DNA from: Candidatus Micrarchaeota archaeon CG1_02_47_40
GTDB lineage: Archaea > Micrarchaeota > Micrarchaeia > Anstonellales > CG1-02-47-40
Assembly: GCA_001871475.1 (NCBI GenBank)
Contig: MNVE01000003.1
Span: 6,630 to 70,629, forward strand
Direction: 5' to 3'
DNA length: 64,000 bases
Of the stretch, positions 31,574 through 38,479 are shown piece by piece. The notes under the pieces are model-generated. The model was not told the origin of the DNA. It searched no databases and saw only the letters and a list, made by a program, of their open reading frames with translations. The position numbers and the translations under genes were made by a program. Position 1 is the first letter of the stretch, and every line of letters begins with the position of its first letter.

Positions 31574-33301
31574 GTGGGAAGGATGGCTGAACTAAAAACC
31601 GGTCAGGCGCCAAATGGTCAAAATATTGCCGCTTCAAACGGAGTCAAGACATTTTTCAACACATTCATCAGCGGCAATAATAGGACTTTTCTTGAAAACG
31701 ACTGGAGAAAAACAATGGGCAAAAACGGGGAGAATTTTTTTGGAAAGCCTCCTGCGGAGCAGAACAGACTTTTTGTTTTATTTGCAGGGCAAGCCAGGGA
31801 ATACGGAATCCCGCGCATGGAAAAGCTGAAATTCATACGCGAAAAGCAGTACGAGCACCGCATAAAACATCCGCAGGAGATGGGAAAAAACCAGCTCCCA
31901 TGCCTTGTTTTCATAACAAACGGACCAAGTGCGCACAGGGCATTCAACAACAGGTTCAAATACACTGAAAACGGAACACTTTTTAACGGAACTTTTGCGC
32001 TTGCATCAATCTCCGCAAACCCGCAAGAAGCAAAATCAAATCAGGATTTTCAGGCGGTTTATTATATCCTAAATCACAATGCGCATGAAAGTGTAACAAG
32101 AAATAACAATCATATGCCCCCCTACATAATCGTCTGCACCCAATGCAAAAACGGCGATGAAGCATCTTTTCTTGAAGCCGCAGAGCTTTCTCTTGCGCGC
32201 ACTAAAAAACTCCGCAAAGACGCAACAAGTGCGGGGCACCTGTTTGTCGGGCGGACATGGAAATTCCAGGTAGGAAAAACAAATGCAAACGTGCATCTGC
32301 CCGCGGTAGTCCATGCCATTGGCGAGAGGCGCTTTTACGTAGTAGAAAAGAAAAAGGGCAGGGGCGGCTTAAAGAAGCTCCCCTTTGAGGATTGGTGCGC
32401 CCAAAAAGGGATTTCAGAACATCCAATAGTCGCAAAACATCTTGAAAATCTCCGCCTTCACGCACAGGATGAACATTATGTGAAGGCGCTTGAGACTGCT
32501 TCTGCATCCGTAATCTGGGAGTGCACGGATTCAAGACGGTTTCCCGAACTGACTGCAACTACATACCGGCTGATTGGCAGCATCCCAAGCGATGAGGAAT
32601 TTTTGAGAATCGCAAAGGACGGCAAGGTAGAAGAGACTGAATTCGTAATACACGTGAAATGCGGCTACATAAACACCGCCGTTGCAATCCACAAAATGTT
32701 TGACGAAATTCTTAATCGCACCACCACCGGAGAAAAACACATCTCAAGAAAAAGAATTTCCGAAGCATTGAAAAGAATTCTTAAGGGAAAAACTCCGAGT
32801 ATGGGCGTAGAAGCGATACTCAACGAGATAGGGGGCGTGAGCGAAACTAACGCAGCGACTTTCAAGAAGCTTTTCGGCTCATCCGACGATTCAACACGTT
32901 CTGTTTTTAGGCACATGTACGCACGCGGGCTTTTTGAAATGAGCGATGGAAAACATCCCCTGCCTTTCATGACTGCGGCGAAAACTGTCGTGGATGCACT
33001 TGAGGGCATCTGCATAAAAAACTCAAAAGTTGTTCTGCCTAACGGTTTGGAGTCATTTCTCATACACGAGCAGATTGCAAGAGAGCTGAAAGACCGGCTT
33101 CTGCTGCTTCTACAAAACCATGCAGAAGAGATAAAATCAGCTCGCACAGACGGCAAGCTTCCGGACATATCCGTTACTATGGCGGGGTTGAGCACCGCAA
33201 GGAAATGGCTCGTGCCTGATGGAATTTCCGCAGACTTAACCCGAACAGATTCAATTTTAAAGGAAATCCTCCAAACCGAATTAATGCAAAAAGAACTTTG
33301 A
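31574..33301 (+). CDS. Hypothetical protein containing a divergent beta-carbonic-anhydrase-like motif set
   Basis: ECTDSR (nt 32522) and HVKCG (nt 32651); directly upstream of a canonical beta-CA. Confidence 0.6.
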   Translation: MGRMAELKTGQAPNGQNIAASNGVKTFFNTFISGNNRTFLENDWRKTMGKNGENFFGKPPAEQNRLFVLFAGQAREYGIPRMEKLKFIREKQYEHRIKHPQEMGKNQLPCLVFITNGPSAHRAFNNRFKYTENGTLFNGTFALASISANPQEAKSNQDFQAVYYILNHNAHESVTRNNNHMPPYIIVCTQCKNGDEASFLEAAELSLARTKKLRKDATSAGHLFVGRTWKFQVGKTNANVHLPAVVHAIGERRFYVVEKKKGRGGLKKLPFEDWCAQKGISEHPIVAKHLENLRLHAQDEHYVKALETASASVIWECTDSRRFPELTATTYRLIGSIPSDEEFLRIAKDGKVEETEFVIHVKCGYINTAVAIHKMFDEILNRTTTGEKHISRKRISEALKRILKGKTPSMGVEAILNEIGGVSETNAATFKKLFGSSDDSTRSVFRHMYARGLFEMSDGKHPLPFMTAAKTVVDALEGICIKNSKVVLPNGLESFLIHEQIARELKDRLLLLLQNHAEEIKSARTDGKLPDISVTMAGLSTARKWLVPDGISADLTRTDSILKEILQTELMQKEL

Positions 33302-33314
33302 AGGTGATTCCCCC

Positions 33315-33902
33315 ATGGAAGACGCATTAGCCAAACTCTTAAAGGGAAACGAGAATTTCGCATGCAACTCCTGCCAGGTGAAAGTTTCTCCTGAAAAAAG
33401 GCAGGAGCTCTGCAAAGGGCAGTGCCCATCCGCGATAGTGCTTGCCTGCTCGGATTCCCGCGTTGCACCGGAAATAATATTTGATGCTTCATTAGGGGAA
33501 ATATTCGTGGTAAGAACCGCAGGCAATGTCCTTGATAAAATCGCGCTCGGCTCAATAGAATATGCCGCCCTGCACCTTCACACCTCCCTAATAATCGTGC
33601 TAGGGCATGAAAAGTGCGGCGCAGTAACTGCCGCCTGCAAGGTGGAAAATGGCGCGCAGGCTGAAAGCCCGAACATTTCAGCAATATGCAAGAAAATCCT
33701 TCCTGCAGTAAAGGCGGCAAAGAAGAAACTTCCTTCCGCAGGCGAGGCGGAGATTATAGAGAAGGCATCGGCAATAAACGTGAAGAAGGTAATCTCCAAG
33801 ATAAGGAAAAGCCATATAATCTCAAAACTTCTCTCTGAAGGCAAAATAAAAATCGTCGGGGCAAAACATTCCATAACCTGCTCAAAAGTTGAAATGCTTT
33901 AA
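33315..33902 (+). CDS. Beta-class carbonic anhydrase
   Basis: CSDSRV, RTAGN, GSIEYA, GHEKCGAV. Confidence 0.95.
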   Translation: MEDALAKLLKGNENFACNSCQVKVSPEKRQELCKGQCPSAIVLACSDSRVAPEIIFDASLGEIFVVRTAGNVLDKIALGSIEYAALHLHTSLIIVLGHEKCGAVTAACKVENGAQAESPNISAICKKILPAVKAAKKKLPSAGEAEIIEKASAINVKKVISKIRKSHIISKLLSEGKIKIVGAKHSITCSKVEML

Positions 33903-33943: not shown

Positions 33944-36679
33944 ATGGATGACAAAAGCAAGGAAACATACAAGCTCAAGAAGCAGCTGCGCGAGCTTGCG
34001 CACCATTCAGGCGGCAGCACCGAGATGATTTCGGTTTACATCCCGCCAGGCTATCCCATATACGAGACTTCAAACAAATTAAAGACAGAGCTGGGGCAGG
34101 CATCAAACATAAAATCAAAGGGCACGAGGAAAAATGTCACCGATTCGCTTGCAAAAATAATAAATTATCTGAAAATGTTTCGAGAAACCCCAAAAAACGG
34201 CATTGCGATATTCTGCGGAAACATCTCAAGCAACCCCGCCAAAACCGACATAGAGCTTTTTTCCATGTCCCCACCCGAACCCTTAAATATACAAATTTAC
34301 CGCTGCGATTCCGCATTCTTTCTGGATCCGATAAGGGATTTGGTTGAGGTGAAGGATACTTACGGAATAGTTGTGCTGGATGGGCGGGAGGCGACGATTG
34401 CAACCGTGAAGGGGAAGTCCATAATCATACTGAAAAGGCTCAACTCAATGGCGCATGCAAAAATAAGGAAAGGGGGGCAGTGCCTTGCGCCAGACACTTT
34501 AATACAGCTTGCAAGCGGCGAACTTTCCCACATTTCCGAAGCACATGCCGGCTCCCTGATAAAGGCGGCAAACCTTCAGGATTTCACATCCACTGATTCA
34601 TTGTGCTCCGACAAATTCACAACGAAGGCGAAAAATGCCTACAAAATAGTGGTTCATGCCCCGAGGATGGAAATAGAAGCGACCGCATGGCACCGCTTTT
34701 TTACTATAACTGAAAACGGAGTGAAGGAAACGTTTGCAAAAGACCTGAAAAGAGGGGACAGGATGCTTATTGCAAGAAAATTAAACCATTCCGGAGCAGA
34801 AGTGAAAACAGAATTCAAACCTTCCTATCGCATGGTTTTAGGGGAAAATGAATTCCTAAAATTGCAGGGAAGAAGAAAAGAGCTTAAATGGCCGCAGAGT
34901 TTAGTGGCAAAAAAACTCGGCATAACTCAAATGGCAGTTTGCAGGATGGAGCGGGGCGAAATTCCGCTTTCTGCAGGCAAGATACGGGAGCTGTACAAAC
35001 TTTACGGGCTGTTCCTTGATGAAAAAAGTTTCAGAGTGCCTTCCGTAAGCCTGCCAGAGTGCTACACCGCGAACCTCTCCTACCTTCTTGGGGTTATTGC
35101 AGGCGACGGCACGCTTGACGGGAACAGAATCATAATTTATGAAAGCTACTCCGAGCTTGCGGAAAAATATGCCCGCATTGCCAAGGAAACGCTCGGGCTT
35201 GAGGCAGTATTGCGCAAGGTGGATAAAACAGGGCAAAAAGGCAGTTTTGCGAAAAAAGAGTATTACGAAATCCGCCTCTACAGCAAAGACTTCGCAGAGT
35301 TTGTAAATTCAGAAATCTCCCAAACAATCTCCTCTTCGGATATAAGATGCGTTCCTTTGCAGATACAAAAGTCCCCTCTAAACGTCCAGGCATCTTTTCT
35401 TTCAGGGCTCTATGATGCCGAAGGATACATTCACGGAAAACGTGTTGAGATTGCAATGCGCTCAAGGGAAATGATGCGCCAGCTGCAGGCAATGCTCCTT
35501 CGCTTCGGCATCTGTGCATCATATGGGGAAAAGGCGGTGAAGGGAAACCCGCAATGGTTCGTCAGCATAAGCGACCTGCAATCCCTTAAGAATTTTGAAA
35601 CGAGCATAGGGTTTTCGAGGGAGGACAAGAAAAACGCGCTTCGAAGAATTGCATCCAGGCGCATGAAGATGCAATTCGTTGATCAGGTGCCTGTTGATGG
35701 CAGGGAGGTTTTCAAATTCGTAAAAACGCTTGGCTTAAAGACAAGCGATTTTCATGCCGCAAGCGATTTTTTCAGGAACAAAAAGCCACTTGGAAGGGAA
35801 GCATTCATAAAAAATATCAGGGGGGTTCTCCTTCAAAGGGCAGAGCGCCTCGGGCAGAAAAAACTGGCGGAAAAAATGCTTGCAAAGTGGCTGCCGGAAC
35901 ACATAGGAGTGGCAAAAGTATCAGAGAAAATTCCGATATGCACGGAGAGAAAATATTTTGACCTGACCGTTCCAAACACTTTCAATTTTGTCGCAAACGG
36001 CTTCATAGTCCACAACAGCGCCCGCAGATTTGAGCGCCTGATAGAAGAAAGCATAGAAAAATATTACAAGCGCATCGGGGAAGCGATGGATACCTATTTT
36101 CTTACGGGAATAAAGGGAGTGGTGGTGGGCGGTCCCGGGCCTGCAAAAGAGTTTTTCATGCAGGCAAAGCCCTTCAACTACCAGATAAAGGTGCTTGGGG
36201 TTGTTGACACCGGCTACACCGACGAATACGGAGTCCGGGAAACCCTGACAAAAAGCTCCGAGCTGATACAGGGGCAGGAACTGCTTGAGGAGAAGAAAAT
36301 AATAGACTCCTTCCTGAAGGAAGTGGCGCACGGAGGGCTTGCAATATATGGAGAGAAAGATGTAAGGGAAGCAATGGAAAGAAAAGCAATCAAGACTCTC
36401 ATGGTTTCGGAAGGGCTGCATTACGTGCGCGCAAAATTGATGAATTCAGCAGGGGAGGAAAAATGGGTGAATGCGCGCGACGAGGAGGAACTGGCAGAGA
36501 AAGCCGAGGCGGAAAAAGGCTTCAAAATAATGGAGAAAAAAGCGCTTCTTGACGATTTGGTTGATTTGGCGGAAGACAAGGGGATTGAGGTGAAAATAAT
36601 CTCAAACGAAACGGAGGAAGGGGCGCAGTTTTTGCAGTCTTTCTACGGAATAGGCGCGTTTTTGCATTATCGAAAGTAG
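33944..36679 (+). CDS. prf1: Peptide chain release factor aRF1, intein-containing
   Basis: NIKS, YRCD, GGQ|intein|SARRFER, GPGPAK, GIGAFLHY; spliced product 399 aa. Confidence 0.96.
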   Translation: MDDKSKETYKLKKQLRELAHHSGGSTEMISVYIPPGYPIYETSNKLKTELGQASNIKSKGTRKNVTDSLAKIINYLKMFRETPKNGIAIFCGNISSNPAKTDIELFSMSPPEPLNIQIYRCDSAFFLDPIRDLVEVKDTYGIVVLDGREATIATVKGKSIIILKRLNSMAHAKIRKGGQCLAPDTLIQLASGELSHISEAHAGSLIKAANLQDFTSTDSLCSDKFTTKAKNAYKIVVHAPRMEIEATAWHRFFTITENGVKETFAKDLKRGDRMLIARKLNHSGAEVKTEFKPSYRMVLGENEFLKLQGRRKELKWPQSLVAKKLGITQMAVCRMERGEIPLSAGKIRELYKLYGLFLDEKSFRVPSVSLPECYTANLSYLLGVIAGDGTLDGNRIIIYESYSELAEKYARIAKETLGLEAVLRKVDKTGQKGSFAKKEYYEIRLYSKDFAEFVNSEISQTISSSDIRCVPLQIQKSPLNVQASFLSGLYDAEGYIHGKRVEIAMRSREMMRQLQAMLLRFGICASYGEKAVKGNPQWFVSISDLQSLKNFETSIGFSREDKKNALRRIASRRMKMQFVDQVPVDGREVFKFVKTLGLKTSDFHAASDFFRNKKPLGREAFIKNIRGVLLQRAERLGQKKLAEKMLAKWLPEHIGVAKVSEKIPICTERKYFDLTVPNTFNFVANGFIVHNSARRFERLIEESIEKYYKRIGEAMDTYFLTGIKGVVVGGPGPAKEFFMQAKPFNYQIKVLGVVDTGYTDEYGVRETLTKSSELIQGQELLEEKKIIDSFLKEVAHGGLAIYGEKDVREAMERKAIKTLMVSEGLHYVRAKLMNSAGEEKWVNARDEEELAEKAEAEKGFKIMEKKALLDDLVDLAEDKGIEVKIISNETEEGAQFLQSFYGIGAFLHYRK
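34481..36016 (+). mobile_element. Intein (512 aa) with XRE-type HTH and LAGLIDADG homing endonuclease
   Basis: Block A CLAPDT, block B ATAWHRF, LLGVIAGDG and FLSGLYDAEG, block F/G YFDLTV..NFVANGFIVHN followed by Ser +1. Confidence 0.95.
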
Positions 36680-36745: not shown

Positions 36746-38479
36746 TTATTTTTTCAGCTTGAAAATTATCACGAAAAGAAGCACTGCGATTACAAAAAGC
36801 AGAACCACTATCACTGTAATTGCGAGAAAACCGTCATAGTAAGGTGAATCAGCGGGTTTCTTTTCTTCTACACTTTCCCCTGCGCTTTCCTTTACAACTT
36901 CCTTTTCAATCCCTTCCTTCATTCTTCCTTCAATTTCCAGCGTGTTTTTTTCAAGCTCGCGTGCAAAAGCAAGCGCATAATACGCTCCCATGAGGTTGCC
37001 CTCCCTGTCCGCTTCGTATAAATATCTTCCATGCGCGGCGTACGCTTCACTCCACACGCCCGAATATTTCTGTGAAAGAAGGGATTTCACTTCCACTTCA
37101 ATCTCTTCTCTTCCCTTCTCAAAACCCTCCTTCCCCGCTTTAGCGCTTGAATATGCATAGGCAGAATCAAATATTGAGGCAAGATATTCCCCTTTCTCAT
37201 AAAGCTCTTGCGCATTCTCAAGCCGCCATGCCGCCTCCTCGTTTTCCACTCCCTCTGTGAGTATTTTTTCCGTTTCGTCAATCTTCCCGCGCGCCATAAG
37301 TGCAAACCCGCTTTCATTAACTTTCTTCCCTTCAACTCCTGCCTCTCCCTTCATCTTCCCTGCAATCATGCACCAGCTTTTTGCGTAAAGCGCCTCGCGC
37401 AGCAGATAATACTTCTCCTCAATCACTTCATAGCTTGAGTTTTTTACCTCTTTCACATTCTTCTCACTCCAGGAGCGCCTCAATTCTGCCCCGACACCCA
37501 TCTCCCAACTCTCTTCAAAAACAGTTTCTTCTCCACTATCTTGCTTCAAGCATTCTTCTGCTTCCCTTACTGTCTCATTCAAATCCCGCCCGCCTTGCAC
37601 ATCCAATAAGAGTTCCAAATCCACTTTTCCAAGAAACGCCTCGTTTGCCGCGCTGTAATAATACCCGTGCTCAAAAAGTGTTTTTGCGTTTTTCTGCCTT
37701 TGGGAAAAATACTCTTCTATCTGTCCGTTCCCCTGCACTTTGTTTTCCTTTATCTTCTCCCCAAATTCCACTAGCATTTCAGAGGCGATTCCCTTCAATT
37801 CTTCTGCATACTCCCCCCTGCTCAAGTTTTCCGGAGCCCTCACTAAATCTATCTGACTTTCATTCACAACAATTTCCCCTTCCGAAAGCGCAAATTCGTA
37901 TGCCTCTCCTAAATTTCTTGCCTCAAGCAGGCGCACGCTTGCATTCTCCCCGAAAAAAAGAAGCTTCTCAAAAAAGCTCTGCACCGGCACCACAAAATAA
38001 GTCAGGTTTTTCTCTTCAACAGCATGAAGCTTTTCCACCATCCCTCCAACCGCGCCGATGCTTCCGTCAGGCTCTATCGTTCCGGTCAGTGCCAAATCAT
38101 TTCTTACTGTTCTGTTTCCCGCAGCAGCCGCTGCTAAAACAGCCATTGCCGCCCCGCCTGACGGGCCGCTAACCTCCCCTCCCCCGCCTCCGTATATGCT
38201 AAAAGTAACATCGCACCCGCTTGCATTTGCATACTCTAAGCCAAGCACAGCCGCAATCTCCTGCGAAATTTGCGTGCTTATCCCGATTTTCGGCCTTATT
38301 TGCGTATACACTCTTCCATCTCCAGCGCTTGTGTGCGCCTCAACAGTCACAACATCTCCCTTTCCCTCCCCGAAAACCGCAGGCACAAAAACGCGCGCGA
38401 GCGCGTCAGGGCATTGCGCATGAACTGCATTAAGCAGGAGAAGAAGGGCAAAAAATAATGGGATAACTTTTCTTTCCAT
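36746..38479 (-). CDS. Secreted membrane-anchored S16 (Lon-like) serine protease lacking ATPase (COG1750-like)
   Basis: Signal peptide; SGPSGG, TGTIEPDGSIGAVGGMVEK Ser-Lys dyad; GYYYSAA; C-terminal TM helix. Confidence 0.85.
   Translation of the reverse strand: MERKVIPLFFALLLLLNAVHAQCPDALARVFVPAVFGEGKGDVVTVEAHTSAGDGRVYTQIRPKIGISTQISQEIAAVLGLEYANASGCDVTFSIYGGGGGEVSGPSGGAAMAVLAAAAAGNRTVRNDLALTGTIEPDGSIGAVGGMVEKLHAVEEKNLTYFVVPVQSFFEKLLFFGENASVRLLEARNLGEAYEFALSEGEIVVNESQIDLVRAPENLSRGEYAEELKGIASEMLVEFGEKIKENKVQGNGQIEEYFSQRQKNAKTLFEHGYYYSAANEAFLGKVDLELLLDVQGGRDLNETVREAEECLKQDSGEETVFEESWEMGVGAELRRSWSEKNVKEVKNSSYEVIEEKYYLLREALYAKSWCMIAGKMKGEAGVEGKKVNESGFALMARGKIDETEKILTEGVENEEAAWRLENAQELYEKGEYLASIFDSAYAYSSAKAGKEGFEKGREEIEVEVKSLLSQKYSGVWSEAYAAHGRYLYEADREGNLMGAYYALAFARELEKNTLEIEGRMKEGIEKEVVKESAGESVEEKKPADSPYYDGFLAITVIVVLLFVIAVLLFVIIFKLKK

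Follow-up and report, generated by a model that had tools for sequence, protein, structure and literature searches.

The gene for the translation release factor aRF1 of Candidatus Micrarchaeota archaeon CG1_02_47_40, a small archaeon from groundwater, is interrupted by an intein, which is located directly after the GGQ motif. It was found in a stretch of 64,000 nucleotides (contig MNVE01000003.1 of assembly GCA_001871475.1, positions 6,630 to 70,629 of the forward strand), designated the window in the following. With a probability of about 0.8, we consider the insertion to be a class-1 intein of the standard kind, in which a LAGLIDADG homing endonuclease is nested, i.e., a selfish mobile element residing between Gln −1 and Ser +1 in the only aRF1 that this archaeon of the Micrarchaeota type (DPANN) possesses. 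For this reading, we show the sequence features and the fold of the intein, the single copy of its host gene, its distribution, and the history of its family. An intein behind the GGQ motif had been noticed in an earlier note made from the sequence alone, and this observation was confirmed: the open reading frame (ORF), the intein coordinates, the GGQ/SARRF junctions, and the spliced product of 399 amino acids (aa) are exactly as given there.

Host gene and anatomy of the intein

The aRF1 precursor is encoded by a single ORF, the sole long frame in this region, which contains neither internal stop codons nor frameshifts. Its translation places the junctions at ...KIRKGGQ/CLAPDT...FIVHN/SARRFER; the first intein residue is Cys-180 of the precursor (codon from nucleotide 34481) and the last one Asn-691 (codon to nucleotide 36016). 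The exteins of 179 and 220 residues add up to an aRF1 of 399 aa. The following features were assigned (position in the window, strand, description, and basis):

33944..36679, +, aRF1 precursor ORF, 911 aa plus TAG stop (Pfam, TIGR03676)
33944..34480, +, N-extein, residues 1-179: domain N with NIKS and YxCxxxF, and domain M up to GGQ (TIGR03676 model positions 1-174)
34481..36016, +, intein, Cys1 to His511-Asn512, 512 aa (hidden Markov models, alignment, structural model)
34481..34831, +, HINT splicing domain, N-terminal part, with block A Cys1 and block B Thr68-x-x-His71 (alignment, model)
34832..35038, +, helix-turn-helix (HTH) domain of the Cro/C1 (XRE) type, intein residues 118-186, in the linker between HINT and endonuclease (Pfam HTH_3, sub-model, conservation)
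35054..35677, +, double-motif LAGLIDADG endonuclease domain, intein residues 192-399, with Asp209 and Glu314 (Pfam, alignment, structure matches)
35072-35116, +, LAGLIDADG motif 1, intein residues 198-212 with Asp209 (Pfam, conservation)
35390-35434, +, LAGLIDADG motif 2, intein residues 304-318 with Glu314 (Pfam, conservation)
35678..35896, +, helical region, intein residues 400-472, linking the endonuclease to the C-terminal HINT part (model)
35897..36016, +, C-terminal HINT part (TIGR01443, conservation)
36017..36676, +, C-extein, 220 aa, first residue Ser +1: remaining part of domain M and domain C (TIGR03676, Pfam)

The host protein was identified as aRF1 by the score of its exteins against TIGR03676 (401.6 bits; cut-off 234.7 for the whole protein), with an alignment that is broken at model position 174, by Pfam matches to eRF1 domains 1-3, and by the intact motifs NIKS (residue 55), YRCDS of YxCxxxF (residue 119), and GGQ (residue 177). 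Within the precursor, Pfam recognized Intein_splicing (58.8 bits), LAGLIDADG_3 in two stretches (80.2 bits), and Hom_end (34.8 bits), and the C-terminal region of the intein matched TIGR01443 (26.7 bits; cut-off 15.6). All characteristics of a class-1 intein were found in the sequence and the structural model, namely the block A cysteine, the block B motif T-x-x-H, the block F aspartate, the terminal His-Asn pair, the serine at position +1, and the HINT fold.

These residues are strongly conserved in the family. Among 55 aligned members, which are 28-67% identical to the intein of the window, C1, H71, G204, G208, G210, G309, D312, R341, K383, D494, H511, and N512 are invariant, and T68, D209, A313, E314, and G315 are conserved in at least 90%. 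A second set of 100 family rows, 71 of them full-length inteins, gave the same picture: of the splicing residues, C1, H71, D494, H511, and N512 are each present in 100/100 rows and T68 in 96/100, and of the endonuclease residues, D209 is present in 69, E314 in 70, and R341 and K383 in all 71 of the full-length inteins. The residue at +1 is serine in the gene of the window, in 114/114 parsed homologues (see below), and in all 100 conservation rows.

An AlphaFold2 model of the intein, computed from the family alignment, reached a mean predicted local distance difference test score (pLDDT) of 95. Its best structure match is the TliVMA intein 7QSS (Z 36.9; root-mean-square deviation (rmsd) 2.7 Å over 391 residues; 22% identity), followed by PI-TkoII, PhoVMA, PI-PfuI, and PI-SceI. 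The HINT part matches the mini-inteins NpuDnaB and SspDnaB (Z 22.4, rmsd 1.3-1.5 Å over 134-136 residues), and model residues 192-399 have an endonuclease fold (I-Tsp061I, Z 18.3; I-DmoI, Z 17.9) containing two motif helices, each of which ends with an acidic residue. Further helices are present at intein residues 407-470, and by its position the region of residues 400-472 probably corresponds to the accessory domain of VMA inteins.

The domain in the linker was assigned to the Cro/C1 type because the Foldseek matches agree with each other and with the Pfam score, which is marginal (HTH_3, PF01381, 24.0 bits against a cut-off of 23; precursor residues 310-355). Seven of its positions (L128, R132, Q139, G147, Q150, E157, and G159) are conserved in at least 90% of the 55 members. 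When the piece of 69 aa was folded alone, a pLDDT of 89.7 was obtained, and the Foldseek matches listed for this sub-model are almost all of the Cro/C1 type (HipB, P22 c2, 434 Cro, C.AhdI, SinR), with an rmsd of 0.8 Å over 54 columns for P22 c2; no match of the sub-model reached E ≤ 0.001, the best E value being 3.6e-3. The P22 c2 repressor is also the closest solved relative of the domain by sequence (E 0.02). Thus, the two LAGLIDADG motifs and the XRE-type HTH reported in the earlier note are indeed present, as judged from Pfam, conserved residues, and the model.

In its general organization, i.e., HINT, double-motif LAGLIDADG endonuclease, and helical accessory region, the aRF1 intein resembles TliVMA and PhoVMA (7QSS, 7QST), PI-TkoII (2CW7), PI-PfuI (1DQ3), and PI-SceI (1VDE), and it shares the class-1 residues with the solved archaeal endonuclease inteins. 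It differs from the solved VMA-type inteins in its host, aRF1, and its GGQ/S site, and in the linker between HINT and endonuclease, which is filled by the HTH domain and which in VMA inteins is an unstructured loop of 28-32 residues according to the accessible part of Beyer et al. (2022; PMC8966425). For endonuclease-bearing inteins, the same authors describe accessory domains of various kinds that follow the endonuclease and precede the C-terminal part of HINT, those of TliVMA and PI-TkoII being HTH-like and modulating cleavage; because such domains have already been described there, the HTH domain of the aRF1 intein is a variation on a known accessory-domain theme rather than a new principle.

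The nearest non-allelic relatives examined, three weaker full-length matches, are inteins of the glutamine-fructose-6-phosphate aminotransferase GlmS from the same phylum, which are 25-29% identical over 512 aa and also contain LAGLIDADG motifs, whereas their host gene and site differ. One of them shows a weak match to the Cro/C1-type family HTH_26 at the same relative position (19.6 bits, below the Pfam cut-off of 22). Two genomes, G350 and G308, show a weaker intein match no farther than about 3 kb from their aRF1 gene, and in G350 it is located in the GlmS gene. The source genome itself harbors two more LAGLIDADG inteins, in aIF2/eIF5B and in subunit A of the A-type ATPase, and in neither of them was HTH_3 matched at E ≤ 0.001. 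The aRF1 intein resembles those of aIF2/eIF5B in that an essential translation factor is the host and a conserved functional motif the insertion site; unlike aIF2/eIF5B and A-ATPase subunit A, aRF1 is not a P-loop NTPase. The positions of these related genes are as follows:

Source genome, contig 15, L056:2641-6000, +, aIF2/eIF5B with intein, 1119 aa
Source genome, contig 1, L057:2564-5908, −, A-type ATPase subunit A with intein, 1114 aa
L059:810-4031, L060:688-3909, and L061:1965-5174, GlmS inteins

In the window, the aRF1 gene is preceded by a gene for a beta-class carbonic anhydrase (33315-33902, +; Pro_CA, 139.8 bits), directly upstream of which lies an ORF of 575 aa (31574-33301, +) that matches no Pfam family at E ≤ 0.001. 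The downstream neighbor (36746-38479, −) encodes a protein of 577 aa with hydrophobic ends and a weak match to the Lon_C proteolytic domain (33.1 bits).

Dependence on splicing and distribution of the intein

The source genome (1.15 Mb, 16 contigs, 93% complete) was searched with the TIGR03676 profile, which detected the split aRF1 gene and an ORF of 345 aa on contig 11 and nothing else. The latter encodes pelota (TIGR00111, 281 bits; cut-off 177.65), and a second, intein-free aRF1 was not found by this profile in the 93% complete genome. Likewise, no second aRF1 was detected in any of the 30 intein-bearing genomes examined. Since the source genome contains one aRF1 and pelota and no intein-free copy, mature aRF1 would have to arise by splicing. 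The claim of the earlier note that translation termination in this archaeon depends on splicing is therefore supported by the gene content, and its proposed check for a second prf1 copy gave none, neither in the source genome nor in the other intein-bearing genomes examined. The source genome has also kept a methyltransferase of the HemK2/MTQ2 family (TIGR00537, 170 bits; cut-off 87), a family which methylates the glutamine of GGQ in eRF1 (PMC7708063, accessible part). As the methylated glutamine is the −1 residue of the intein, methylation presumably follows splicing.

Within the order of the source organism, 41 species-representative genomes including the source genome (G000) were compared. 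In 35 of them, aRF1 is uninterrupted with GGQS contiguous, which identifies the intein as an in-frame insertion, and in four (G000, G007, G028, and G031) the protein is split at model position 174, the intein of G028 being a mini-intein; of the remaining two genomes, G015 contains aRF1 in two contig-end pieces and G019 a pelota-like match alone. The sole other genome of the source's family, G001, has an intein-free aRF1. Twelve intein-free alleles of the order have the protein context AHAKIRKGGQ/SARR(F/Y)ERLIE and are identical to the junction of the window at 36-47 of 60 nucleotides; they are candidate targets of the endonuclease. When 401 genomes of the phylum were searched with the intein of the window (the unpublished genomes G060 and G205 enter the denominator only), 27 genomes with strong intein matches were checked with the aRF1 model, which was split at position 174/175 in 26 and uninterrupted in G298; no second aRF1 at E ≤ 1e-25 was present in any of the 27. 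Together with the four genomes of the order, an intein-split aRF1 is present in at least 30 of the 401 genomes, across ten family codes, and one genus (g14) includes intein-free, mini-intein, and full-intein genomes side by side. Contigs of four groundwater sequencing runs gave no joint across the intein; their cover was patchy and of low depth and thus provides no evidence on polymorphism or expression.

Homologues in public databases were searched among proteins of 501-1595 aa, a length selection that enriches for inteins, and 120 of the 204 matches were listed. Where those listed have a named source, Micrarchaeota predominate, and Aenigmarchaeota and Nanoarchaeota also occur. As many as 114 of the 120 parse as GGx, C...HN, and S at the same site, the other six being fragments without one junction; P0047 was mis-split at its C end by the parsing pattern and was left out of the later tables. 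The inteins of the 114 parsed homologues comprise 140-577 aa, most of them about 500-530 aa. Ten are mini-inteins of 140-166 aa without HTH and endonuclease, five are of intermediate size (217-352 aa), and a group of 408-455 aa lacks the HTH domain. At the other end of the range, P0056-P0061, P0082, P0084, P0088, P0106, and P0116, one of which is a Fermentimicrarchaeum record, have inteins of 563-577 aa, about 60 aa above that of the window. At position −1, 96 of the 114 have Q, 11 M, five W, one F, and one S; an intein-bearing aRF1 with GGS at this position, P0077, forms a long branch of the extein tree.

Automatic annotation has already given some of these records the name 'peptide subunit release factor 1 (eRF1)/intein/homing endonuclease'. 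The name of others is just 'helix-turn-helix domain-containing protein' or 'LAGLIDADG family homing endonuclease', and the sole release factor of those genomes is therefore hidden in the annotation. A published description of an aRF1 or eRF1 intein was not found, with the reservation that the supplementary host tables of PMC4760082 could list one. The main text of that paper names aIF2 among the archaeal intein hosts, states that there are few inteins in the core transcriptional and translational components, and does not mention release factor, eRF1, aRF1, or termination, as is also true for the accessible part of PMC10710043; in that of PMC5871332, eRF1 and inteins both occur, in different genes. 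We therefore regard the intein as a standard one with a new host, aRF1, and a new insertion site, GGQ/S. The novelty suggested in the earlier note holds in part: more than 100 public sequences have an intein at this site, a part of them already auto-annotated as eRF1/intein, but no paper describing it was found.

Proposed mechanism, mobility, and alternative explanations

According to the scheme that we favor, the precursor of 911 aa would be translated as a whole, Cys1 would undergo an N-S acyl shift assisted by Thr68 and His71, Ser +1 would attack the resulting thioester, and Asn512 would cyclize with the aid of His511 and Asp494. The exteins would thereby be joined to the aRF1 of 399 aa with an intact GGQS loop, which HemK2/MTQ2 may then methylate. 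Because the host has no other aRF1, splicing would be efficient and most likely constitutive. The released protein of 512 aa is predicted to act as a site-specific endonuclease that cuts intein-free aRF1 genes at the GGQ/S codons, into which the intein would be copied by repair; most likely, the XRE-type HTH and the second, helical accessory region extend the contacts to DNA.

The family of aRF1 inteins is, or recently was, likely mobile, since the endonuclease residues are kept, presence and absence occur within one genus, and intein and extein trees are incongruent for members other than that of the window. In the extein tree, which over-represents intein carriers as the homologues were picked by length, the protein of the window forms a clade with P0002 (full intein) and G001 (intein-free) with 100% support in the Shimodaira-Hasegawa-like approximate likelihood-ratio test (SH-aLRT); intein-free alleles are scattered among carriers, and mini-inteins are nested in full-length clades at least five times. 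Several placements in the intein tree disagree with the extein tree, and one extein clade, {P0033, P0042, P0056-P0061}, was rejected when tested on the intein data (delta lnL 172; p value of the approximately unbiased (AU) test, p-AU, 1.6e-16). The intein of the window is 62-67% identical to those of P0003-P0011, whose exteins are just 57-62% identical to its own, which hints at exchange or at rate differences; for P0002, the extein identity is 74% and the intein identity 67%. Taken together, these observations agree with the classical homing cycle, in which an intein invades, is fixed, loses its endonuclease by decay, and is finally lost itself.

Several points weigh against this interpretation. 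Both trees (91 extein and 69 intein rows) were obtained by quick searches, and the clade used for the rejection above was picked with knowledge of the trees. In the case of the intein of the window, an extein-like arrangement was not rejected (AU p = 0.47) and no signal of transfer was obtained; with this p value, vertical descent with losses accounts for its presence as well as recent homing does. There is also no compositional sign of a recent arrival, as the GC content of the intein (0.463) equals that of the exteins (0.462 and 0.485). Moreover, splicing and DNA cleavage by this particular intein are predictions from its sequence and model. The suggestion of the earlier note that the element may still be homing is thus supported for the family, which is likely mobile and has conserved endonuclease residues, and not for the window's own intein, the transfer of which is unsupported.

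Instead of being spliced constitutively, the intein could keep aRF1 inactive until a signal such as redox state, temperature, or DNA binding via the HTH or the endonuclease permits splicing, so that termination would be tuned post-translationally. We consider this unlikely. With the insertion in the catalytic loop of the sole aRF1, slower splicing would lower termination, the conservation of the HTH across inteins just 28-67% identical leaves room for a DNA-dependent behavior, and conditional splicing has been documented for other archaeal inteins (PMC11409957, accessible part). On the other hand, no cysteine besides Cys1 reaches 50% conservation, no second conserved cysteine able to pair with Cys1 or with a cysteine at +1 was found in the 100 rows, and because only Cys1 is conserved and +1 is always serine, a disulfide trap conserved in the family is excluded. 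The intein is missing from 35 of the 41 genomes of the order and from G001, the closest one, and is thus dispensable; it has repeatedly decayed to mini-inteins of 140-166 aa without HTH and endonuclease, and efficient splicing is to be expected of a release factor that is essential and the only one. Evidence in favor of the conditional switch proposed in the earlier note was accordingly not obtained. A more elaborate and distinctly unlikely proposal is that the unspliced precursor, having the stop-codon and aEF1A-binding domains and no usable GGQ loop, might behave as a competitive dead release factor, and that the rate of splicing, possibly via binding of the HTH to DNA, might set termination and read-through in tiny-genome symbionts; the excised protein might in addition be a DNA-binding regulator.

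Domestication of the freed HTH-LAGLIDADG protein as a host DNA-binding regulator, instead of or besides its function as homing nuclease, appears improbable. WhiA, in which a LAGLIDADG fold is joined to an HTH DNA-binding domain, is among the fold matches, and the seven strongly conserved HTH positions would agree with such a role. WhiA has a catalytically degenerate LAGLIDADG part and carries its HTH at the C terminus. In contrast, the HTH of the aRF1 intein is N-terminal to the nuclease, and of its acidic residues, D209 is retained in 69 and E314 in 70 of the 71 full-length inteins, as expected for an active nuclease. Furthermore, the distribution is sporadic, the related GlmS inteins share the layout, and cleavage-modulating HTH-like accessory domains were already described for VMA inteins (PMC8966425, accessible part). 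That the element is a dead, non-splicing relic and another factor terminates translation is highly improbable: the sole point in favor is that a gene could have been missed in a genome 93% complete, and it is opposed by the absence of stops and frameshifts, the intact splicing residues, the extein score of 401.6 bits to aRF1, and the lack of a second aRF1 in 30 of 30 intein-bearing genomes.

GGW and GGM release factors and significance of the intein

Via the tryptophan and methionine residues at position −1, aRF1 loci of Aenigmatarchaeota were reached, of which 26 were compared. GGW with an intein is present in two and GGQ with an intein in three of them, and the intein-free loci encode GGW (10), GGM (1), or GGQ (10). 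Five GGW/GGM genomes each contain one aRF1 and a pelota-like match, and the bacterial RF-1 domain was found in none of these five. HemK2/MTQ2 (TIGR00537) scored above the cut-off in none of nine GGW/GGM genomes (best 73.8 bits) versus four of five GGQ Aenigmatarchaeota, a pattern behind which there may be few independent events, as the genomes are related. Among the best 120 relatives of one GGW protein, 118 have GGW (87 GGWSQ, 31 GGWSA), one is GGW/C with a mini-intein, and one has GGQ. The GGWSQ sequence resembles GGxSQ, which Burroughs and Aravind (2019; PMC6514570) note as a motif in release factors of the Vms1-like type, and no report of GGW or GGM in aRF1 was found in a limited literature search. 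Judged by these genomes, GGW or GGM takes the place of GGQ in the sole aRF1 of a large clade of Aenigmatarchaeota (loci L017-L042, proteins P0089-P0120 and P0122-P0241), with or without an intein, and this replacement of a supposedly universal motif may matter more than the aRF1 intein itself.

With the intein described here, translation termination would join the short list of processes other than replication that depend on protein splicing, and the insertion lies directly at the site of peptidyl-tRNA hydrolysis and methylation. More than 100 natural alleles of this one site are available, with inteins from 577 down to 140 aa and with Q, W, M, F, or S at position −1, and this series would be useful for studies on the homing cycle, on the −1 residues that splicing tolerates, and on accessory DNA-binding domains.

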